64,000 nt of DNA, taken from assembly GCA_037189525.1 (NCBI GenBank), contig JBBCJC010000002.1, positions 160,001-224,000 of the forward strand, written 5' to 3'. Positions 27,614 through 63,220 of this stretch are shown here, one piece after another. Below the pieces are notes generated by a model that was not told the DNA's origin, made no database searches, and saw nothing but the letters and a program-made list of their open reading frames with translations. The translations under genes were made by a program, and so were the position numbers. Origin of the DNA: Gemmatimonadales bacterium (lineage in GTDB: Bacteria > Gemmatimonadota > Gemmatimonadetes > Gemmatimonadales > GWC2-71-9). Position 1 is the stretch's first letter. Each line of letters begins with the position of its first letter.

Positions 27614-29482
27614 TCAAGGCAGGTCGACCTTGTACTCGACGACCCCGCCACGTGTGCTGAGCAACCGAACGGTCAGGGAACGATCCGCGGTCTCGGCGCC
27701 CGCTTTGATCCGGAGTCGGATCGTTTTGGTCTCGTTGCCACCCATCCAGAACTCCGGCGCTCTGCCGACCGTCCGGCTCTTGCTTCCTTTGGCAAACTCG
27801 GCCACGAGCCGGTCGGGCCGCACAATCTTGACCTTTTTGGCTTGATCCAGCGCGGTCGGCAAGCGGCCGGCGTTGCGGACCGTTACGACCAGTTCATGGG
27901 TGGCCGAGTCGGCGGCGGCGCGGGTCAGGCGGGAGGCCTTGACCGAAGGGATCGACAGCTGCGGAAGGGATTTGGCCATGTACAGATTGAACATGGCCTG
28001 TTTGCGGGCCCACTCCTCCAGCACCTCCGGCGGGCCATTCTGCGAGAAGAACTTCGGGTTGAAGCCGCCGATTTCGACCTTGCCGAGCTGCGGGTGATCG
28101 AACGGAGTCCACGGCTTGAAGCAGGTCCCGTTGAAGCGCTCGTCGCACCAGCGGAGCACCTCCCATTCGTCGATATCGCCGTCCCCGTCGTAGTCCTTTT
28201 CGCGGCCGCCGTGCCAGATCTCGTCTCCGTACCAGACGGCGCCGAAATCGGCGTAGCCCCAGTCCGGGCCATGGCCGAACAGCGGCGAGGGACGCGTCGA
28301 ATCGCCGGTGAACGGGTTGATGGCGCGGCGGGTGGCGTAGGTCCGGTAGACGTCGCCCGCCCACGGATAGCCGGTGAAACTGAGCCCGGCCGAATCCATG
28401 TGGTGATAGATGACGAGGTCGGACGGCATGATGCACTCGGTTTCTTCGCAGACCGAGGGACCGCGTAAATGCATCGGCACCGCCGTGTCCATCGAGTTGA
28501 CCACGCCGACGTGCGGATGGCGCAGCAACCAGAGCACCAGCGAACGCGTCTCCGGCTCCGATAACGGATGCTCGCCCGCGCCCAACTGGGTCCAGCCTCG
28601 CCCCGTGACGTCGCTCCCCGGTTCGGGCCGCCAATTGGACGGGTAGTTGCGGTGGAGGTCGAGCCCGCCGATCCCGTCCTCGTTGTAGCGGCCGTCGCCG
28701 TCGTTGTCGATCCCTTCGCTCCAGACCTTCCAATCGCCGGTGCCGGTTCGCACCCGCTTCATCGCGCGGCCCGAGGGATCCTTGGGATCCTGGATGTAGT
28801 CGCCCTTGCCCATCTCGACCCGCTGGCGCATCTGGCGGATATACCCGTCGCTATCGAGGTCCTCTCCCGGGTCTTCGTCGAGCAAGCCGTCCCCATCCGA
28901 GTCGTGCGGTCGGACACTGCTGCGATTGGTTTGCGCGGTGAGCCGGTAGAGGTCCGAGCCATCCGGATTGTTGAGTGGTCGGACGTAAATGGCCTTCTGA
29001 TCGAGCAGGGCCGTGATCTCCGGATCCTTGCCGTAGTTCTCGAGCAGGTACCAGGCGAGGTAGAGCGCCGATTCCGTGCTGGAAATCTCGCCCGAGTGCC
29101 GCCCCGCATCGAACAGGGCGGCGGGCTTATCGGTGTGCTTGCCGGTCTTCTTGTTGGTGAGCGTGAGTTGCCAGAGGGTCCGACCGCCAAAACTCTCACC
29201 CACTTCGTAGAGGTCCACCAGCTCCGGATACCGTTTGGCCCACTCGTGCATCCACCATTCCACCTCGACCGAGGTATGGTAGTGCTTGAAATCCATCTGT
29301 CCCTCGACCAGCGGTTTGGTCTCGGGATAGCTGGTCAGCGGAAAGATGCTGGGTCCGTGGCGCAGTCCAGGTACGGCCAGGACTTTCGGCGTCGAGTCGC
29401 GTGTGGACGGGCGGTCTTGCCCTATCAGCGGGACAATCGCAACAAGCGGAAGTGCCGCAACGAGAAAGGCGCGGAGAGCCAT
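27614..29482 (-). CDS. M14 family zinc carboxypeptidase-like protein, exported
   Basis: HSGE zinc motif, NPDG, DLHRNYP and SEPET; several DxDGDG Ca-binding-like loops; signal peptide. Confidence 0.9.
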   Translation of the reverse strand: MALRAFLVAALPLVAIVPLIGQDRPSTRDSTPKVLAVPGLRHGPSIFPLTSYPETKPLVEGQMDFKHYHTSVEVEWWMHEWAKRYPELVDLYEVGESFGGRTLWQLTLTNKKTGKHTDKPAALFDAGRHSGEISSTESALYLAWYLLENYGKDPEITALLDQKAIYVRPLNNPDGSDLYRLTAQTNRSSVRPHDSDGDGLLDEDPGEDLDSDGYIRQMRQRVEMGKGDYIQDPKDPSGRAMKRVRTGTGDWKVWSEGIDNDGDGRYNEDGIGGLDLHRNYPSNWRPEPGSDVTGRGWTQLGAGEHPLSEPETRSLVLWLLRHPHVGVVNSMDTAVPMHLRGPSVCEETECIMPSDLVIYHHMDSAGLSFTGYPWAGDVYRTYATRRAINPFTGDSTRPSPLFGHGPDWGYADFGAVWYGDEIWHGGREKDYDGDGDIDEWEVLRWCDERFNGTCFKPWTPFDHPQLGKVEIGGFNPKFFSQNGPPEVLEEWARKQAMFNLYMAKSLPQLSIPSVKASRLTRAAADSATHELVVTVRNAGRLPTALDQAKKVKIVRPDRLVAEFAKGSKSRTVGRAPEFWMGGNETKTIRLRIKAGAETADRSLTVRLLSTRGGVVEYKVDLP

Positions 29483-29519
29483 GAGAACCGGTCACGGAAG
29501 GGGGACTCACTAAGATAGC
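29445..29519 (-). repeat. M14 promoter/5' end, direct-repeat copy A
   Basis: Aligns with 32143-32218; both copies end in ACTAAGATAGC (+ strand). Confidence 0.75.
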
Positions 29520-29572
29520 GCTCCGCTTGGAGTAACGCGGAGCGCTTTATAAGCGGACCTACGCCCGACAGG

Positions 29573-30208
29573 CTATTGCGCGGGGATCGTGGTCCATGCC
29601 GAGAGCACCTCTCCCGTGGGTTGGACATAGCGCGCCCAAACGGTGTCTCCCGCCTGTACCTGCAGTCGGTAGTCACCGGGCACCCCCGAACCTCCTACCG
29701 CCGCGACTGCAAAGTCACCGTACTGTCCCGCCGGAACGGGGCCCCAAGCCCTACGATAGCTATTCTCGACCCAGTCGACCGAAGACCATCGCGAAATGAT
29801 CTTGGCGGCCTCTTTCCAACCCAATGGGCCTACGACCCGAATGTGGATTGCCCGACCCTGAAGAAGCGAGGTCACGAACTGAGCATGGATTCCGGGCAAA
29901 AGCTGAACTACTTCGTCTATACTATGACCATTCTTGATGCCAATCAGAAGCTCGGTTGGAGGAGCACGAAGCACCTCACGATCTCCGCGCGACGTTTCGA
30001 AGATGATCTCATGTCGTTCGTGCTCGAGAAGCTCGGGATCGCCAACCGGATAGTAAATCCACGAGAAAACCATCTCGTGGCTTCGGACCGCCGATGCGTC
30101 GACCTCGATCCGAGCGACCCTCCGATTGATGACAACTTCCCACTCCGATGGATTTGTCGAGCAAGCAATCAGCCATACGCAGCTCCCAATAACGATTGGG
30201 CGAAGCAT
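29573..30208 (-). CDS. Hypothetical lipoprotein with a subtilase-prodomain-like segment (low GC)
   Basis: Lipobox LIAC; LLIGIK...IHIRV...EAAKII....VDWVENSY resembles S8 propeptides. Alternative start at 30250. Confidence 0.6.
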   Translation of the reverse strand: MLRPIVIGSCVWLIACSTNPSEWEVVINRRVARIEVDASAVRSHEMVFSWIYYPVGDPELLEHERHEIIFETSRGDREVLRAPPTELLIGIKNGHSIDEVVQLLPGIHAQFVTSLLQGRAIHIRVVGPLGWKEAAKIISRWSSVDWVENSYRRAWGPVPAGQYGDFAVAAVGGSGVPGDYRLQVQAGDTVWARYVQPTGEVLSAWTTIPAQ

Positions 30209-30263
30209 CCCAAAGACCCCAGGTAACAGAGACGTGTAGAAAATTCTCATCCTAGAACCTGAC

Positions 30264-31988
30264 TCAACAGATCGCGAAACCACCAATCATCTGGATATTG
30301 CTTGTTGTACGACCCGCGGATGTGACCGTCACTCGTAAAACGAACTGATCGCTCAAGCTCGTATACTCACTATAGGTCGACGAGTTGGACCCAACGGAGA
30401 CCCAAGTCGGACTGCATGCATCCCGACGCTCCCACGCGTAGTTGATCGTACCAACGCCGTTCGTTACGTCTGCAGTCCAAACATCTAGCCCGCCCGTAGG
30501 AAAGCTCGGACCGTTAATATACGCGCCTAGAGAGCCCAAAACGGCAAGTAACGCTTGAACGCGTCCATACCCGAAACTATCATCGCGACCAGGCGACCCG
30601 AAATCGGCAGCGGTTGAGGTTAGGCGACCAAGAACTTGTGACGATGTGAATCCTGGATTGTATGCCCAAACTAAAGCAGCTACACCTGCAACATGCGGTG
30701 AAGCCATAGAAGTACCGCACAGGGAGAAGTACGCCCCATTGGCGATCATGTTAGTGGCTTCAAACGGCGCGGAGATATCAACACCAGGACCATAGTTCGA
30801 CTTGTGGTACGTGAAATCGCTACAAAACACATTCGAGGCGAACCCGTCAGCCGATGTCGTTCCGGAGACCGACAGGACGGACGTATATCGTGCCGGGTAG
30901 CAGTCGACACCCGCACTGACGCCAGAGCCTCCGCACTCGTGGTTATTACCCGCAGCGCCAACAATAACATTTCCTGCTGCTGCGCTAGCCGCCAACGCGA
31001 TCGAAAGCGGTGTATGAGCACCGTTCCTCGTCAGGCTGAGGTTGACTACATGACGAGGAATACTGCTCGTAGTCGTCCAGTCAATCGCACCGATAAGCGC
31101 AGCATCTGAACACCCCGAGGGACCACAGGCTCTGATAGAGTTCACGTTGGCATCGCTAGCAACCCCAACATAGCCGATACTGTTGTCCCGAGCTGCAGCA
31201 ATGCCCGCAACATGAACCCCGTGATTTGAGGAGGAGTGATAGCAGCTGGTAACGTTCGGCGGATCACTCGCGTACAAGCATTGCAGATTGAATATCGAGT
31301 TCGCAGGGCCATCACCTGATACGATATGCACGCTATCCAAGCCGTAATCGATGACCGTAATTGTCGCGCCACTACCCGAAGTGTATGCCCAGGTATTTGA
31401 AGCACCGATCTTGGTCATTCCCCAGTCGATTGTCTGACTGAACAACGCGCTACTGCCAGCAGAGGCTCCCTGAGAATAATTTCCAGATTCCACTACGTAG
31501 TCAACAAAAGGCAACTCTCGCAAGGCTAGAGCCGCACTGGGATCAATCGTTCCTGCAGCGGCGGGGAAACTCGCAAAGGTCCGAACTATGCGTAGCCCTC
31601 GCGACTCAAGCTCGCCAATCGCATCGATAACTTCCGCTCTAGATACACTCGACGTTACACCGGACAGTCGACTCAGTGGAGCATCGATTGCCTTGATCCC
31701 CACAATAACGCCGCCGTTCGACTCGTTAATCCGACTCAACAATTCCGCGTCGGACAGTTCTTCGCCGACGTCGTATCGAATGGATGGAAATCGGGCCGGC
31801 ATCTCCGGAAACGTTGGGATAGCGCCCTGGGCATCCTTGGATCCGATCGCCCAAGAAGGCGTCAATCCCCGACCCTGTTTACTATCAGGAGAATTTTGAG
31901 TCGGGTCATCCGACTCAATGCAAGCAGTGACCGCCGACGCCAACAGTAACGGAAGAACGATTACACGGATGGGGGACATGCGAAGCAT
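30264..31988 (-). CDS. S8 subtilisin-like serine protease, lipoprotein (low GC)
   Basis: Lipobox VTAC; triad VIDYG / HGVHVAG / GTSMASPHVAG; AAGN oxyanion motif; prodomain present. Confidence 0.93.
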   Translation of the reverse strand: MLRMSPIRVIVLPLLLASAVTACIESDDPTQNSPDSKQGRGLTPSWAIGSKDAQGAIPTFPEMPARFPSIRYDVGEELSDAELLSRINESNGGVIVGIKAIDAPLSRLSGVTSSVSRAEVIDAIGELESRGLRIVRTFASFPAAAGTIDPSAALALRELPFVDYVVESGNYSQGASAGSSALFSQTIDWGMTKIGASNTWAYTSGSGATITVIDYGLDSVHIVSGDGPANSIFNLQCLYASDPPNVTSCYHSSSNHGVHVAGIAAARDNSIGYVGVASDANVNSIRACGPSGCSDAALIGAIDWTTTSSIPRHVVNLSLTRNGAHTPLSIALAASAAAGNVIVGAAGNNHECGGSGVSAGVDCYPARYTSVLSVSGTTSADGFASNVFCSDFTYHKSNYGPGVDISAPFEATNMIANGAYFSLCGTSMASPHVAGVAALVWAYNPGFTSSQVLGRLTSTAADFGSPGRDDSFGYGRVQALLAVLGSLGAYINGPSFPTGGLDVWTADVTNGVGTINYAWERRDACSPTWVSVGSNSSTYSEYTSLSDQFVLRVTVTSAGRTTSNIQMIGGFAIC

Positions 31989-32142
31989 TGGTCACTCCTT
32001 CAAAGAGGCGCTCTCTAGCGTACCTACCAATCCCAAGCTAGAATCTCCATCCATGCCATACAATACGGCCATTCGGCCCTGAAACAAACACCGAAGCAAC
32101 ACTGCTAGCGTCCGACGACCTTGATCTCCATCCGACCTCATC

Positions 32143-32218
32143 AGTGGCAGTGCCGCGGCGAGGAGAGCGCGGAGTGACATGAACGACCGGTTGCGAACGG
32201 GTGAACGACTAAGATAGC
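32143..32218 (-). repeat. Diverged duplicate of the M14 promoter and first ~13 codons (copy B, truncated MSLRALLAAALPL)
   Basis: Nucleotide alignment with 29445-29519; peptide MSLRALLAAALPL versus MALRAFLVAALPL. Confidence 0.75.
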
Positions 32219-32375
32219 ACCGGCGTCCAATCCTCTGTGGCCCCGGGTGTGATCCGCTCGGCCACGATGCCGATCCTCGACTGCGCTGTCATTGGCTTTC
32301 GTGGACGGGCTCCGCAGGCTGACCGCTCTTGATCTACGCCCGGTCGGAGCCGGAACGGAGGTCGGAGGACCACCC

Positions 32376-35050
32376 TCACTCGGCGCGGATCGCTACCAGC
32401 GGATCGGCCCGCGCCGCGCGGCGCGCGGGAATCCAACTCGCAAGCAATGCCACCACACCAAGCGCGATCGGTACCGTGATGAACGTCGGGAGATCGCTCG
32501 CCTGCACTCCGAACAGCAGGCTCTCCAACCAGCGGCTGGCGACGAACGCCACCCCCAGCCGATGGCGATGCCGAGCCCGGCCAGCACGACACCCTGGCCC
32601 AGCACCAGTCGGGAGAGATCGCCGGCCGTGGCGCCGATGGCAGCGCGAATGCCTAACTCACGGGCCCGCTGCGCAACACCATACGAGACCACGCCGTAGA
32701 TTCCCAGCGCGGCGAGCACCAGCGCCATCGTCGCGAAGAGACCGACCACCTGGCCCTGGAGCCGCTGGCGCCAGAACGCCCGCGAGACCGTCTGCTCAAA
32801 GGTCCCCACCTCGTAGAGCGGTACCTCGGCATCCAGTTCCCGCACCACTCGGCGCACCTCGGGGATCAGGGCGATCGGATCGTCGAGGGTGGTGCGGATC
32901 GCGAGCGCCTGGTTCCGGCGCGGCGAGGCGAAAAGGGGAAATAGATCGCCGGCCCCATCGGCTCCGGAAGGCGAAAGTGCTGGAACTCGCCGACGACGCC
33001 CACGATGGTGATCCAGGGCTCGCTCGAGGTGTGGTCGCCGAACTTGATCCGCTTGCCCACTGGATCCTCGTTCGGAAATTCGCGGCGGGCCAGCACTTCG
33101 TTGACGATCCCGACGCGGCCCCGCGGCTGCCACGATCCGGTGTCCCCAACGGTGCCCACGTCGGTCTGATCGACCCAGCGGCCGCCGAGCAGCGGAACAC
33201 CGATGGCCCGGAAATACTCGGGCGAGACCGACAGGAAGTGCATGTCGAGCGGATCGTGCGGGGGGCGCGGCGGCTTGCCCTCGATCGACATCCCGGCTTT
33301 CACGTCCCAACCACTGAACGGCAGGCCGTCGGCCGATCCGACGGCTTCGACACCGGGCAGCGCGGCCAGTCGCTCGAGCAGGGTCGCGAAGAACGTCCCC
33401 CGCTCCGTCGGGGTCTGATATCGGGCTGTGGGAAGCGTGATGCGCACCGACAGCATACCCTGCTGGTCGAATCCCAGATCGGAGGTGGTGTAGGCGCGGT
33501 ACGACTTGAGGAGCAGCATCGCCCCGATCACCAGCGTGGCCGAGAGGCCGACCTCGAGCACCACGAGCCCGGACCGAAGCCGTCCGGCGTGCCGAGACCG
33601 GAGGGAACCCGCGGCACGCTCCCGGAACGCACCGGCAAGGTCCAGCTTGGTGGCCCTGAGCGCCGGGATCACCCCCACCACGAGCCCGGTCAGCACCGTA
33701 ATGCCCGCGGTGATCGCGAGACTCGCCGGGTCGAGCCGGAGGGTGAGGTCGAACGGGAGACCACCGGGGAACGCGAGCGCGAAGAGCCGGATCCCGCCGG
33801 CCGCGACGCCGAGGCCCACGAGCCCGCCTAACATCGCGAGCGCCAGGCTCTCCACCACCAGCTGGCGCACCAAGCGGCGGCGGCCGGCGCCGATCGCGGC
33901 CCGAACCGCCATCTCGCGTTCCCGGGCCGCACCGCGCACCAGAAGCAGGTTCGCGATGTTGGCGCAGACGATCAGCAGCACGCACCCCACCGCCGCGAGG
34001 AACACCTGGAGCGGGCGACGGAGGTCTCCCACCCGGTCGTCGCGAAGCGACATCAGGTCGGCGCGCCAACCGAGGTTCTGGTCGGGCAGCTCGCGCTCGA
34101 GCCGCTGCATGATCACATCCAGGTCGGCCTGGGCCGCCGCCAACGTGACCCCAAGCCGGAGCCGTCCGAGCGCGCCGGCATTGCCCCGGTTGCCATGCCC
34201 GTCGTTCGGGTCGGGAATGAAGGGAACCCAGGCCCGCTCCCGATCGGGAAAGGCGAAGCCCCTCGGCATGACCCCGACGACAACGTGCGGCATCCCGTCC
34301 ACTTGGACGGCTCGGCCCACGACACTCGAGTCCCCGCCGAAGCGCTGGGTCCAGAGTCCGTGGCCGAGCAGCACCACGCGCTCCGCGCCGGAGCGTTCCT
34401 CGTCCGCCGTGAAGGTGCGGCCGAGTATCGGACGCGCGCCGAGCAACGGGAAGAGATTGGCGGTGACCGCCGCGGCGTCGACTCGCTCCGCATCGCCGGC
34501 GCCGTCGGTGAACGCGAGCGTCCACCAGGTGTACATCCCCAGCGATGCGAAGGTGCGGTTGTGATCCCGCCAGTCGGCGTACGAGATGTTCGAGGCGCGG
34601 ATACCGCGCTCAGGCGCTTTGGAGTACACTGCGACCAGCTCTTCCGGCCGGTCGTACGGCAGCGGGCGGACGAGGATGGCGTGGGCGACGCTCAGGATCG
34701 TCGCGGTAACGCCGATCCCGAGCCCCATGCAGGCGACGGCGAGCAGCGTGAAGCCCAGGCTACTACGCAGCAGTCGGGCGGCGAAACGCAGGTCGGCCAG
34801 GAAGTCGCCGACCCGTTCCCGACGACGGCGGCGCTGGCGCTGGGCGCCGTCGATCACGAGGCAGTCCTGCCGAACCTCCCACCGATCCGAATCGGCGGAG
34901 CGCTTCCGCCCGTGCTTGTTCGGCCGGCATCCCTCTGGCCTCCAACTCCCGCGCGAGTTCCTCGACGTGGAACTGCAGCTCGGTATCGACTTCCGCGGGA
35001 AGGTCAGGCCGCAGAATACGCCGCACCCGGCGCCAGCCGCCGTCGGTCAT
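32376..35050 (-). pseudogene. ADOP-type duplicated MacB/FtsX ABC permease with three frameshifts
   Basis: N-terminal prefix EVDTELQFH..EARGM..EALRRFG, DLRFAAR, CANIANLLL.R...REREMAVR and C-terminal PARRAARADPLVAIRAE are spread over four reading-frame segments. Frameshifts near 34870, 32930 and 32560. Confidence 0.85.
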
Positions 35051-59065: not shown

Positions 59066-59152
59066 GGGTGTATTCCCGGAGGATGTGACGTCGACGAACT
59101 ACTGAATAATACGCGCGACCGCACAGGGATGCTGACAAATCCGCGGATTGTC

Positions 59153-60409
59153 TCAGCGCGCGCCGCCGGTCGCGATGACGCGGCCGTCGACCGCATCTAT
59201 ATAGAGGTCCGCGGTGCCGGCCGCATCGGCAAACCCGACGCGCCAGGCCAGCCGATGAGCAGGATCGGCCAGCTCGGTCGGGCGAACATAGCAGAGCGCC
59301 GGAGTACCGGGCATCATCTCGGAGTCGAGCTCCCGCTCGGTCCGAGCAGCGAGCGCCAGCCGCAGCGCCTCCTCCGCATCCAATTCCGCCCCGGTGCGCG
59401 GCAGCAACGACTGTGCCCATCGCGTCCTCACGCCGACCAAACGCCCCGACTCGGCGTGGACCTCCACCTGATGGAAGTCGCCTGCGACCGGGATATCATT
59501 GGACAGGTGGAGCCATGTCACCCGCCAGGTCCGCACTGGATCACTCCGACCGACCCGGCCGGCCGTGGGATTGCTGGCGCCTTCGGGAGGCGGTGCGGTA
59601 CGGGTCGCTGCCGCGATGAGCGCCGCCACCGGCAGCGAACGCCGCGCCGGCGGATCGGCCAGGCGGGCTAGCGACCATCCGGCCACGGGACCACCCGGAC
59701 CGTCGACCTCGACCGTCGCCGCCGACCAGTGACGCCAGGTTGCCAAGCGCACCTGACGTCCACCGCCGTAGCCTTCGACGTTCTCGAGCGCAAGCACGAC
59801 ATACCGATGCGCCGGTTTCGGCCGAATTCCCGCGCGACGGAGGCGGGCTTCGAACAAATCGAGCATCGCCAGGCGCGCACGATACTCGATGGCGCCGTCC
59901 GAGACGTCGAATGCCCGGCCGCTCAGCACCTGAATCGCCCGATGGGTTGCGGGGTCGGCCCAGACCCGTACCGCGCCAACCTGGCCTCGGATCGAGGTTC
60001 GAATCCGGACCTCGTAGGTCCAGCCGAGCGGATCGAGAAAGACCGCTCGCTGCTCGCGCACCTCCGCACCAACCAGGGCGAGCTCCGCCACGACCGCCTG
60101 CCCGACCTCTGGACCAGGCGCCGGCGGCCGAACCGCGGCGCCGAGCCGGCCGTCGTCCCGCCAACCGACCAGGCCGTCTTCCCGATCGAAGAAAACCACC
60201 ACATCGGGACCCGCTGCCAGCACCGACAGGTCGACCCGCCGAACCGGCGCCAGCGAGGGATGCAGGCTCGACTCCTCCGTCTCGTACGCGAGGATTCGCC
60301 GACCGGTCGGCCGGCCCTCGGGTAGCCGCTCTTCGATCAGCCGCTCGGCCCGAGCCCAGTCGGGATCCGGACCGGCACGCGAACCGCTGGACGGAGGCGG
60401 TTCAGCCAA
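59153..60409 (-). CDS. Hypothetical protein with PepSY-like repeats (candidate immunity protein or inhibitor)
   Basis: Repeated VRVWADPAT, VEVHAESGRLV and LAWRV..LYIDAVDGRVI; LDAEEAL.LA helix; overlaps the upstream gene. Confidence 0.65.
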   Translation of the reverse strand: MAEPPPSSGSRAGPDPDWARAERLIEERLPEGRPTGRRILAYETEESSLHPSLAPVRRVDLSVLAAGPDVVVFFDREDGLVGWRDDGRLGAAVRPPAPGPEVGQAVVAELALVGAEVREQRAVFLDPLGWTYEVRIRTSIRGQVGAVRVWADPATHRAIQVLSGRAFDVSDGAIEYRARLAMLDLFEARLRRAGIRPKPAHRYVVLALENVEGYGGGRQVRLATWRHWSAATVEVDGPGGPVAGWSLARLADPPARRSLPVAALIAAATRTAPPPEGASNPTAGRVGRSDPVRTWRVTWLHLSNDIPVAGDFHQVEVHAESGRLVGVRTRWAQSLLPRTGAELDAEEALRLALAARTERELDSEMMPGTPALCYVRPTELADPAHRLAWRVGFADAAGTADLYIDAVDGRVIATGGAR

Positions 60410-62279
60410 GAGCGGCCTCGCCGTGATCGGGCGGTAACGGATCGAACCCCATGCGTTCGTCTATCGACCGGAGCCGAGGTTCGTAATACACCGGGTCGCC
60501 GGTCCGTGCCAGCTCCGCATATACCTCGACGAACCGGTAGGGGTCCCACTCATCCTGACCCATGTCGACCCCGGTTTCCTTGATCCAGCGTCGAAAGAGC
60601 CGGCTCGCAAAGGATGCGTTGACCTGGCCGTCGACCGAATACACCCAACCATGGGTGTAACAGGTTCCGTTCGTTGCGTACCAGCCGATCAGCCCGTCGC
60701 TCACTGCGGTTCGGCAACCGCCCACGTAATGCAGGAACCGCGGCACCGCGTCCGCCTCGATACTGAGGGCGCCTTCCGCCAGCTGTCGATTCGCGCCACG
60801 AGTACCGACCTGGACGTAGTCGTCGTCAGTCGCCTGGCGATTGTGACGATTCATCAGCATCACACCGCTTCCCACCATCGGAATGGTCCGATACGGACCC
60901 GGGTTGCCACAGCCGAGTTGAATCGGCCAGGCATACTCGGCGTGATGCTCGACCGCCTCCGCTTCTGCTTCGGGACTTAGGTATCGATCGGGGCAGACCA
61001 GCCCGTCAGGCGGAAAACCCGAATGGGGGTGATCGATCGGCTGATTGTTGCGAGTCGGGTGATCGGCATGCCAGCAATCGCCGTATGCATGACCGATATG
61101 TACCACGATGTACCGGTTGCGCGTCTGGCGATGATACTCCGCCGGCGTCGTCATCGGGCTCGTCAGGACCGTGGCGTGAAAGTACTTTGAGTGCCGGTTC
61201 ATGACCTCGCCGATTTCCCGAATCGCCGGCACCCGATAAGGGTTGTCTCGCGAGGCCGCATACAACAGGCACATGAAGCGCATGTGGAGAGCATCGCGCT
61301 CGTGGGCGAGGTAATCCCGTTCAGTCACCGGTATCCAACGGTCGCTCTGGCCGACCTGAATCCAGAGGGCGTAGAAGTTGTTCCCGGGATACTTCCAGTG
61401 CTCGGCATGATTGCCGAAGATCACCTTCGGGTTGCGTCCGCTCACCTTGACGTTGCCGCCACGCACGGTGCCCGGCTCGATCCCTGGCTGCGCAGATGCG
61501 TCCCGGCCGGAAAAGTCGTAGAGGCGGTCGTGCGCCGGGGCCTCGATCTCGACGATGCGCGTCACGGCGAATCGGATCGGTGTATCGTCCGGGACGTTCT
61601 TGAGCCTCAGGTCGATTTCCGTGTCACCGCGCGCCGGCTCGTCTGGATCGCCGGCAGGCAACACCGACCGACTGGCCCAGCGCGCCCGCACTACGATGTC
61701 GATCGGCACCATGACCGCATCGTGGGACACCGTACCTTCGTCGTCGGGCCCCGGCGGTTCGTCGGCATCCCGATTCCAGACCTCGAGCCGCACCCAGACC
61801 GGCGCATCCAGCGCGGAGATCCGTCCGCCGCCCGCCAGATCTCCCGACCAGCGCCGCTCCTCAACCAGCGTGTGCGCACCGTGGATCAATTCGTCGGACT
61901 GCAGGGCAATGGTGTGTAGTGCGGTGGGTTCGGGGTCGCCGTCGGGGAGGGCCAGCTGCTCGCCGATCTCCGCGCCGATTGCCGGCCCCGTATCGGCCGA
62001 CTCGGTGGTGTCGTCGCCACCCGAATCGTCCGCTGTATCGGCATCGTCACGCGTTTCTTCTCGAGGGGGAGACCGATAGAAACTCAAACGCCCGCGCCGG
62101 ATCTGGGCATTGGGATCGAATACCCGATAACTGAGCAACAGACGATCGGTCGAAGGATCCCAGCGCGGCGGTCCGCTCAGTTCGGCAACCGAAAAGCCGG
62201 CGACGCGAATTTCGGTTTCACGGCCGGTTCGGACGTCATCGGTCAAGACTGGTGCAGCTTCGTCGGAGGGCTCTGTCAT
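60402..62279 (-). CDS. Putative secreted effector with a C-terminal caspase/CHAT-like cysteine-protease domain
   Basis: IVVHIGHA and LHYVGGCRT followed by GW..SV....ASFASRLF; lies in the DUF4123 operon. Confidence 0.6.
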   Translation of the reverse strand: MTEPSDEAAPVLTDDVRTGRETEIRVAGFSVAELSGPPRWDPSTDRLLLSYRVFDPNAQIRRGRLSFYRSPPREETRDDADTADDSGGDDTTESADTGPAIGAEIGEQLALPDGDPEPTALHTIALQSDELIHGAHTLVEERRWSGDLAGGGRISALDAPVWVRLEVWNRDADEPPGPDDEGTVSHDAVMVPIDIVVRARWASRSVLPAGDPDEPARGDTEIDLRLKNVPDDTPIRFAVTRIVEIEAPAHDRLYDFSGRDASAQPGIEPGTVRGGNVKVSGRNPKVIFGNHAEHWKYPGNNFYALWIQVGQSDRWIPVTERDYLAHERDALHMRFMCLLYAASRDNPYRVPAIREIGEVMNRHSKYFHATVLTSPMTTPAEYHRQTRNRYIVVHIGHAYGDCWHADHPTRNNQPIDHPHSGFPPDGLVCPDRYLSPEAEAEAVEHHAEYAWPIQLGCGNPGPYRTIPMVGSGVMLMNRHNRQATDDDYVQVGTRGANRQLAEGALSIEADAVPRFLHYVGGCRTAVSDGLIGWYATNGTCYTHGWVYSVDGQVNASFASRLFRRWIKETGVDMGQDEWDPYRFVEVYAELARTGDPVYYEPRLRSIDERMGFDPLPPDHGEAALG

Positions 62280-62602
62280 CGCCGAGCTCGATCGGGAATG
62301 GCGGTGAATCGGGCCATGCCACCGCTGCGCGCCAAGCCCTCGAAACGAACCCGACCCTCACGGTCGGTGCGCCCTTCCAGCGTTTCACCGGTATCCAGTT
62401 CGATCCGCACATCCTGGTCGGGCACCGGGTCGCCCGCGTCGTCCCGGAGAACGACGCCAAGCCAGGTGTCCTGCGGATCATCCGGGAGGACCGGCCCCGG
62501 TTCGGTTGCCGGACGCGGCCCGGTACGGCACGGTGCGCAGGCCGATCCGCCGCCGGGCGGAGCAAGCGCGTCCGCCTGCGCCTGGGAAACTCGAAGCGTC
62601 AT
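62276..62602 (-). CDS. Small T6SS-locus-type protein (transthyretin/carboxypeptidase-regulatory-like beta domain)
   Basis: QAQADAL...CAPC N-terminus and LRDDAGDPVP...EGRTDREGRVRFEGL; ATGA-coupled on both sides. Confidence 0.65.
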   Translation of the reverse strand: MTLRVSQAQADALAPPGGGSACAPCRTGPRPATEPGPVLPDDPQDTWLGVVLRDDAGDPVPDQDVRIELDTGETLEGRTDREGRVRFEGLARSGGMARFTAIPDRARR

Positions 62603-63177
62603 CGGATGGCCCCGCCGAGTGAAGCGTGCTGCTCGCCGATGCGCCGCCAGAGGAGTTCACAGGAACCATCCGGACGACCAACAGCGAATGCGTCGACCGG
62701 GCCGAAGAAATCGGGCAGGTCGACATCCGGCGCGGTGAGATAGCGGGACAACACTCGGGGATCGTAATAGCGGAAGTACCACGATTCGCCCGCCGGACTC
62801 TCGACGATGAGGAACTGCCGGAAGTGGCGATACAGCGCTTCGAAACCGGCGCCGGACAGCACCAGCACACCCCACGGCTCGTGCCACACCGTGTCCCGCA
62901 GCCACGCGAGCGTGTCGGCATCGACCCGAAACAGATACGGCGCAATGGCCCAGAGTTCTTCCTCGGCGCGCCCGCGATAGAGCGACCGCGCGCGGCCGGG
63001 ATTAGAGGCTCGGCACCGGACCGGAACCGCGGGCTGATCGCAGGCATCGACGAGCGCATAGAGGCGGCCGGCATCGGACCATCGGGTGATGGTTGCCGGG
63101 GCAACATCGGTGCGTTGAAGCGAGGTCACCCGGAAAATATGGGTCAGCGGCGGCCGGAGCGGCAACGTCGCATTCAA
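62599..63177 (-). CDS. DUF4123 domain protein (T6SS effector chaperone/adaptor)
   Basis: LYALVDA, SLYRG, APYL, WGVL, HFRQFL.V and YFRYYDPRVL. Confidence 0.9.
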   Translation of the reverse strand: MNATLPLRPPLTHIFRVTSLQRTDVAPATITRWSDAGRLYALVDACDQPAVPVRCRASNPGRARSLYRGRAEEELWAIAPYLFRVDADTLAWLRDTVWHEPWGVLVLSGAGFEALYRHFRQFLIVESPAGESWYFRYYDPRVLSRYLTAPDVDLPDFFGPVDAFAVGRPDGSCELLWRRIGEQHASLGGAIR

Positions 63178-63220
63178 TCAGGCTCCGTTGCGATTGGGAA
63201 ATCGGTCCGGTACCTTCCGT

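Follow-up and report, generated by a model that had tools for sequence, protein, structure and literature searches.

The four-gene cassette and its site

The locus described here is a four-gene cassette on a 64,000-nucleotide stretch of a Gemmatimonadales genome (contig JBBCJC010000002.1, positions 160,001 to 224,000; hereafter the window). It encodes a DUF4123 adaptor, a 108-residue protein, a 625-residue protein predicted to be a protease, and a 418-residue partner. The four open reading frames (ORFs) lie on the minus strand in that order, with consecutive overlaps of 4, 4 and 8 bp (Table 1). An earlier note on this DNA had described the same genes in the same order and at the same positions, together with the motifs IVVHIGHA (His397) and LHYVGGCRT (Cys522) and a downstream GW.YSV in the 625-residue protein. 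All were found. The note had also given this protein as free of a signal peptide, and no hydrophobic segment was detected in any of the four cassette proteins.

Table 1. Positions of the cassette, its genes and predicted features within the window.
Feature	Position	Strand	Observation
Cassette extent (indel flanked by the M14 peptidase gene and by padR)	59145..63183	n/a	Comparison with G021
DUF4123 adaptor, 192 residues, short TecT-like form, conserved lobe only	62599..63177	-	PF13503, E 2.3e-28, above cut-off
108-residue protein, N-terminal QAxxL...CxxC segment and beta-sandwich	62276..62602	-	Weak CarboxypepD_reg/Big_1 matches below cut-off
625-residue candidate effector: Ig-like, Ig-like and predicted clan CD protease domains, no signal peptide	60402..62279	-	
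Two N-terminal Ig-like beta-sandwich domains (approximately residues 27-195 and 196-334)	61278..62201	-	Model secondary structure
Caspase-hemoglobinase (clan CD) fold domain, predicted (approximately residues 335-610)	60450..61277	-	Structural search of model
His397 codon, predicted catalytic His	61089..61091	-	41/41; 50/50 covering; after model strand 391-395
Insertion of ~110 residues between dyad residues	60750..61082	-	Invariant C402, H407, C429, C457
Cys522 codon, predicted catalytic Cys	60714..60716	-	41/41; 56/56 covering; after model strand 516-520
418-residue partner without signal peptide, made up of tandem PepSY-like modules; candidate immunity protein or inhibitor	59153..60409	-	PF03413

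The cassette is flanked by an M14 peptidase gene on one side and a divergent padR gene on the other. In a close relative (G021) these two genes adjoin with approximately 30 bp between them, forming an empty site. Similarity of G021 to the window ends at 59144 and restarts at 63184. A second relative (G005) carries the cassette at the identical site. The cassette is an accessory island (an indel). The M14 genes of the window's own genome, G005 and G021 lie at near-equal distances from one another (86-87%), which is compatible with either gain or loss of the cassette relative to G021. A sigma-70-like promoter was sought in the region without success, and none of the four proteins matched a PADLOC profile. 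Elsewhere in the window, positions 29000-33000 had a GC content of 54-60% against ~66% in the remainder and a raised AT skew, possibly marking a foreign island.

Conservation of the 625-residue protein

The 625-residue protein had no match in Pfam, NCBIfam, PHROGs or PADLOC. Its family is small, with 12 matches in 90% clusters and 57 in 50% representatives. The closest named homologue (50% identity) came from a Gemmatimonadales bacterium, and named hosts of the family include Phycisphaerae and Bryobacterales. A search of PDB sequences with the family profile returned a single chance match (E 0.9).

Across 41 aligned homologues the mean column identity was 28% and only 12 columns were invariant; these include H397, C402, H407, C429, C457 and C522. 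A wider alignment comprised 65 sequences with the query counted, and conservation was scored over the sequences covering each position. In it, the four insertion residues C402, H407, C429 and C457 were conserved in 50/50, 51/51, 52/52 and 52/52 sequences, respectively. The His/Cys pair singled out by the earlier note was thus kept in all 41 aligned homologues, and its pattern is beyond chance because it accounts for two of only 12 invariant columns at this low mean identity. The 625-residue protein is predicted, with good probability, to be an active cysteine enzyme. The C-H-C-C set within the insertion suggests a putative zinc site.

Predicted fold of the 625-residue protein

In the AlphaFold model (predicted local distance difference test, pLDDT, 91; predicted template modelling score, pTM, 0.85) a pair of beta-sandwich domains precedes an alpha/beta domain. 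In a wide structural search the best match was SAVED-CHAT (8tl0; Z 13.4, root-mean-square deviation (rmsd) 2.7, 171 residues aligned), followed by gingipain (Z 11.0), legumain (Z 10.9) and separase (Z 10.8). The 21 highest-ranking entries were all of clan CD, comprising CHAT, gingipain, legumain, separase, metacaspase, caspase, clostripain, glycosylphosphatidylinositol (GPI) transamidase and similar structures. Matches also included the OaAEP1 peptide ligase (Z 10.9), with GPI transamidase at Z 10.0. In the ESM Atlas the domain matched clusters containing Peptidase_C25 (29% of members) at 0.94 and CHAT (41%) at 0.93. On the evidence of the model, the domain almost certainly has the clan CD fold.

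Membership of the Pfam CHAT family (PF12770) was rejected: none of the 41 homologues matched at E 0.1. The window's own genome contained no PF12770 match anywhere. Alignment with hhalign set H397 and C522 onto the CHAT His and Cys, though at low probability. The call of the fold is supported and that of CHAT-family membership is not, because the structural matches are of clan CD but the CHAT profile comparison is weak. The protein forms its own clan CD family outside Pfam CHAT, so that the caspase/CHAT reading of the earlier note held for the fold but not for the Pfam family.

The N-terminal domains matched BtaeB-NTD of the Bacteroides fragilis type VI secretion system (T6SS) (9jdh; Z 9.7, rmsd 12.1, 203 aligned) and 9jg8_C (Z 9.1, rmsd 3.1, 111 aligned). 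No usable match to residues 25-332 was found in the ESM Atlas. The Ig-like (immunoglobulin-like) domains are likely to be a loading or carrier region. The BtaeB complex is mentioned in PMC13402684.

The PepSY-type partner

PepSY (PF03413) was matched at residues 343-413 of the 418-residue partner (E 6.1e-8; 33.3 bits against a cut-off of 24). The partner model (pLDDT 86) matched YpeB (Z 12.4), fungalysin 4k90_B (Z 10.8) and vibriolysin 3nqz_A (Z 9.0), the last aligning to the C-terminal half of the partner (residues 233-418). We take 4k90_B and 3nqz_A to be the propeptide chains of fungalysin and vibriolysin. Propeptide chains of the M4 and M36 families act in cis on secreted zinc metalloproteases, and PepSY inhibition is established for zinc metalloproteases. 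By its model, the partner is a tandem PepSY fold. Among seven homologous partner ORFs scanned for PepSY, one scored above cut-off, three were weak and three gave no match.

The PepSY-like partner proposed in the earlier note was thus recovered by both profile and fold, and it lies directly downstream of the protease in 18 of 19 family loci. An exported or periplasmic location was rejected, there being no signal and no hydrophobic segment. The partner fits a cytoplasmic immunity protein because of its position, its constancy and its absent export signal. It is one gene in six loci, is split into three or four genes in nine, and is cut by contig ends in three. Split partners (L011:9788-11353, L012-L014, L016, L020, L021 and L059) have the module order first, PepSY, middle, which differs from the fused form. 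In the L011 set PepSY is present twice, and DUF4901 is matched by the middle module.

Gene context across the family

Nineteen loci were examined; L018 and L026 (copies of L014) and L058 (a copy of L009) were omitted. The partner was directly 3' of the protease gene in all but one locus, where the contig ends inside the protease gene. A beta-sandwich homologue of the 108-residue protein was directly 5' of the protease in 16 loci, the other three having no upstream DNA. These 16 domains comprised 11 C-terminal extensions of PAAR proteins, one ORF cut by a contig start, and four free proteins beside DUF4123. PAAR fusions were confirmed with Pfam in L010 and L011 and read from sequence in the others. 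The PAAR-fused form occurs in Phycisphaerae, Bryobacterales and metagenome loci, and the free protein in the window's genus. Several loci also have a VgrG gene upstream, and in two of them this was confirmed. In G003 and G010 the gene order is PAAR, DUF4123, small gene, protease, partner. The association with PAAR and VgrG genes across loci bears out a link of the protease family to the T6SS spike. Distance matrices of effector, partner and hook correlated over 13 loci (rho 0.67, 0.54 and 0.43), which speaks for co-inheritance only and is not evidence of binding.

In G010 (L060:4923-7214; genome 73% complete) the protease gene is broken into three parts that differ in frame, and it continues into the first module of the partner; this is either a pseudogene or an assembly error. 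At L011:4118-6856, L014:3598-5679 and L020:2601-5615 the vgrG and PAAR-protease genes are separated by large ORFs that are unrelated to one another and are probably further effectors.

The putative hook domain and DUF4123

The 108-residue protein gave Ig-like matches in Pfam, at sub-threshold level only. Its beta-sandwich is labelled transthyretin-like. A tree of 44 hook-type beta-sandwich domains was made from 66 columns; it is unrooted, and the domains were gathered with a hidden Markov model whose seeds were for the most part protease-adjacent. All 17 protease-adjacent domains fell on one branch (100/99). The other 27, which are tails of VgrG, PAAR and free proteins, including some from the same genomes, fell outside it. 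Because of this single branch, the beta-sandwich, not DUF4123, tracks the protease. The hook domain tracks the effector across phyla and is therefore suggested to be the specificity element. The 108-residue protein is likely a co-adaptor or cargo hook.

DUF4123 was considered as the constant loader of the protease family and rejected, as it is adjacent to the protease in only 4/19 loci. Loading by DUF4123, as put forward in the earlier note, is accordingly compatible with the adjoining genes here but is not constant across the family, in which the beta-sandwich is the recurrent element (16/19). Among the 19 loci, DUF4123 occurs only in the four whose beta-sandwich is a free protein. The CxxC noted earlier in the 108-residue protein is present here, and family-wide in three of five free small proteins beside the protease.

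Against the Tla1 model (245 positions), the match of the window DUF4123 protein spans positions 17-129. After the RYYDP motif it has 52 residues, against 170 in the G010 copy. Elsewhere in the genus (L001, L036, L039, L041-L043, L045, L047, L049 and L052) DUF4123 is usually beside a free small protein. These small proteins have a Q..(A/V).A(L/M)GGC..C N-terminus followed by a beta-sandwich. PAAR proteins of the genus near DUF4123 share a tail motif, TMxAAKAxGxAF, a candidate DUF4123-binding helix. In G010 (L060:3738-4926) and G003 (L059:10477-11878) DUF4123 is approximately 290 residues long and the small protein lacks the QAxxL...CxxC start. The QAxxL...CxxC segment may be tied to the short form of DUF4123.

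The T6SS cluster and its co-occurrence with the protease

Gemmatimonadetes are listed among T6SS-bearing phyla (PMC9113992). Injection-system genes, for which the earlier note had proposed a genome search, were found as a T6SS tail and spike cluster at 746-773 kb of the window's own contig (C2; the window is C2:160-224 kb), approximately 530 kb from the cassette. The cluster comprises genes for PAAR, TssB, TssC (PF17541), VgrG, TssG, a TssK-like protein, a ClpB/ClpV-like ATPase, an FHA protein and a kinase. The genome's only PAAR match (C2:749 kb) and only Phage_GPD/VgrG match (C2:762 kb) both lie here; the window contains neither vgrG nor PAAR, as had been noted before, and Hcp was not searched as a family.

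Among 61 genomes (the window's own and its kin), the protease was found in five, TssC in 13 and DUF4123 in 12. All five protease carriers and all 12 DUF4123 carriers are among the 13 TssC genomes, which as kin are not independent. Protease, TssC and DUF4123 were all not found in G021, the relative with the empty site (90% complete). Of 401 sampled genomes of the phylum, three carried the protease, all in the window's genus.

A second DUF4123 gene in the cluster adjoins a paralogue of the 108-residue protein gene, downstream of 1350-residue and 438-residue ORFs. The order at C2:749453-755732 (L005:4453-10732) is 1350-residue ORF, 438-residue ORF, small beta-sandwich gene, DUF4123. The first ORF has weak OmpA-like and M6 metalloprotease-like matches and the second a lipoprotein-like N-terminus. 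This second cassette is probably another effector-immunity pair of like adaptor design. At C2:756323-758754 (L005:11323-13754) a 381-residue six-helix membrane protein and a 428-residue VWA protein head the T6SS operon. On the minus strand at C2:743840-748218 (L106), PAAR is followed by a 799-residue ORF with no family match, a 657-residue OmpA/peptidoglycan-binding ORF and an M48 peptidase.

Proposed mechanism and alternative explanations

We hold with considerable confidence that the protease is spike-associated cargo. For its loading, a reasonably likely scheme is that the 108-residue beta-sandwich binds the effector, probably via the Ig-like domains, and that in the window's genus the short DUF4123 bridges the free hook to the PAAR tail in the manner of the split TecT/co-TecT. 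For its action, the prediction of an antibacterial protease with the partner as its immunity protein is rather likely. After injection, the His397/Cys522 dyad would cleave a cytoplasmic protein of the neighbouring bacterium. The C-H-C-C insertion would bind zinc and shape substrate access, and the cytoplasmic partner would bind and block the enzyme as a propeptide does. On balance, the cassette probably arms the distant T6SS with an injected protease, the partner protecting self and kin. The full combination, an antibacterial T6SS toxin from the caspase/CHAT clan whose insertion binds zinc, a PepSY inhibitor acting in trans as one or as three to four polypeptides, and a portable hook switched between PAAR-fused and free forms, is put forward tentatively, at somewhat less than an even chance.

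Several observations weigh against this reading. With Foldseek, the listed matches to the whole 625-residue model were mostly generic Ig/Fn3 domains (PDB, BFVD) and no clan CD protein was among them; the protease domain surfaced only in the wide structural search. Against 26 CHAT domains, hhalign gave a probability of 3.7% (E 0.011) with the insertion omitted and 2.5% with it kept. The BtaeB match was tied with fibronectin (Z 9.0), and this likeness is for that reason a lead only. A partner split into three or four genes is unusual for an immunity gene. The propeptides it resembles belong to zinc metalloproteases, and PepSY is also found in the non-inhibitors YpeB and YycH/YycI. The protease copy of G010 is fragmented. 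TssM and TssL (IcmF_C, DotU) had no match in the genome (98% complete), in a search that did not extend genome-wide to Bacteroidota-type genes. Family matching revealed no Hcp either, and the 146-residue ORF after TssC, likely the tube gene, matches no family. Given these two results, a working T6SS is an assumption. The membrane anchor may be atypical, since TssC is of the PF17541 type and the genome gave no match to IcmF or DotU. Lastly, the Pseudomonas aeruginosa effectors Tce1 and Tce2, which are of clan CD type, are not toxic to Escherichia coli and have no immunity gene (PMC13323088).

Four other explanations were considered. The protease may instead be a spike-associated processing enzyme that trims its own chain, the acidic tail of PAAR or an effector loaded alongside it, with the partner as chaperone or regulator. 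In polymorphic toxin systems, the majority of caspase-like domains are releasing peptidases (PMC3482391). The PAAR proteins next to the family have long acidic tails, other large ORFs are often close by, and a three- to four-gene partner is odd for simple immunity. The protease domain is, however, C-terminal with nothing to release, and no other cargo gene accompanies it in the window. Only five of the 13 TssC genomes carry the protease, so it is not needed for assembly. We regard this explanation as unlikely, though it is the strongest of the four.

Cargo directed at eukaryotes (protists, fungi), with the partner keeping the protease latent or folded and not serving as sibling immunity, is less probable again. 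Tce1 is among the fold matches (9qpe_G, Z 9.7), and Tce2 is harmful to yeast while sparing E. coli (PMC13323088). Both Tce proteins are Hcp cargo without a neighbouring immunity gene, whereas an overlapping or adjacent partner is present in 18/19 loci here.

Slightly more doubtful still is a role for the clan CD domain in modifying target proteins without cutting them, as a transpeptidase, transamidase, ligase or non-toxic enzyme. OaAEP1 and GPI transamidase score within approximately 1 Z of the proteases ranked beside them, but most fold neighbours are hydrolases and the loci contain no conserved acceptor-substrate gene. An intracellular defence or toxin-antitoxin module without secretion, like the CHAT proteases of CRISPR and of cyclic-oligonucleotide-based antiphage signalling systems (CBASS), would suit the SAVED-CHAT fold match and the accessory island, but is highly improbable given that PADLOC matched 0/4 proteins, that the model has no sensor domain, that loci with upstream DNA show PAAR/DUF4123 linkage and that all carriers have TssC.

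If the antibacterial reading is true, the family would provide a new protease with a bacterial target and a PepSY scaffold acting on a cysteine protease. It would also offer a natural experiment in cargo loading, one hook tracking one effector across Gemmatimonadales, Phycisphaerae and Bryobacterales. The switch from a PAAR-fused to an adaptor-tethered hook would show a possible origin of split-DUF4123 co-adaptors. The T6SS itself, poorly known and with no standard membrane complex found, would gain a cargo.

Comparison with known systems

In DUF4123 proteins one lobe binds the VgrG tail and another the effector, TecT/co-TecT being a split version (PMC11582642). The PAAR/TecT/co-TecT/TseT system of P. 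aeruginosa resembles the cassette in having a short, conserved-lobe DUF4123 and a separate small protein beside the effector (PMC11582642, PMC10433429). The likeness extends to G003 and G010, which have PAAR in front in one run. TseT is a DNase, whereas the cargo here has a predicted clan CD protease fold. The 108-residue protein differs from co-TecT in being a beta-sandwich that is PAAR-fused in other phyla, and the two are likened by arrangement only. The TTR (transthyretin-like) domain of VgrG binds Tle1 (PMC10433429).

Tox-Caspase is a predicted C-terminal toxin with T6SS among its delivery routes and with Imm36/Imm57 as immunity proteins (PMC3482391). Points in common with the 625-residue protein are a caspase-like fold bearing His and Cys, the prediction of a toxin at the C-terminus, and the T6SS as a predicted route of delivery. 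The 625-residue family is set apart from the Tox-Caspase of the PMC3482391 main text by the absence of a Pfam match, two Ig-like domains and the C-H-C-C insertion. Immunity also differs, the word PepSY having 0 occurrences in the searched text of that article.

Tce1 and Tce2 of the P. aeruginosa H3-T6SS are Hcp-borne putative cysteine proteases (PMC13323088). They resemble the window protein as T6SS cargo with a His/Cys dyad (match to PDB 9qpe: Z 9.7, rmsd 3.3, 153 aligned). They are small cargo of the Hcp lumen, whereas the window protein has 625 residues, a PAAR-linked family and a constant partner. Cpe1 is a papain-like antibacterial T6SS cysteine protease that cleaves GyrB and ParE and has a cytoplasmic cognate inhibitor, Cpi1 (PMC12136450). 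As an antibacterial cysteine protease with such an inhibitor, Cpe1-Cpi1 is the best functional model for the cassette; it differs in its papain-like fold and in an immunity protein unrelated to the PepSY partner.

With CHAT, separase, gingipain and legumain the 625-residue protein shares the predicted fold and the placing of His and Cys after adjacent core strands. It differs from them in the lack of a Pfam match in 41 members, the ~110-residue insertion between the dyad residues, and 5-14% identity in structural alignments. The partner resembles the M4/M36 propeptides and YpeB in its C-terminal half, which aligns to 3nqz_A and 4k90_B. Unlike the M4/M36 propeptides, it is a separate cytoplasmic protein, or three to four proteins, beside a cysteine-protease fold.

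Among the papers listed in a literature search outside which most subscription papers lay, none dealt with the 625-residue family or with PepSY as immunity against a T6SS protease, and none described a tested caspase-fold antibacterial effector with PepSY immunity. The cassette is a known adaptor-effector-partner design, of the split-DUF4123 type, carrying an unlisted clan CD family, an unusual PepSY-repeat partner and an alternating hook.

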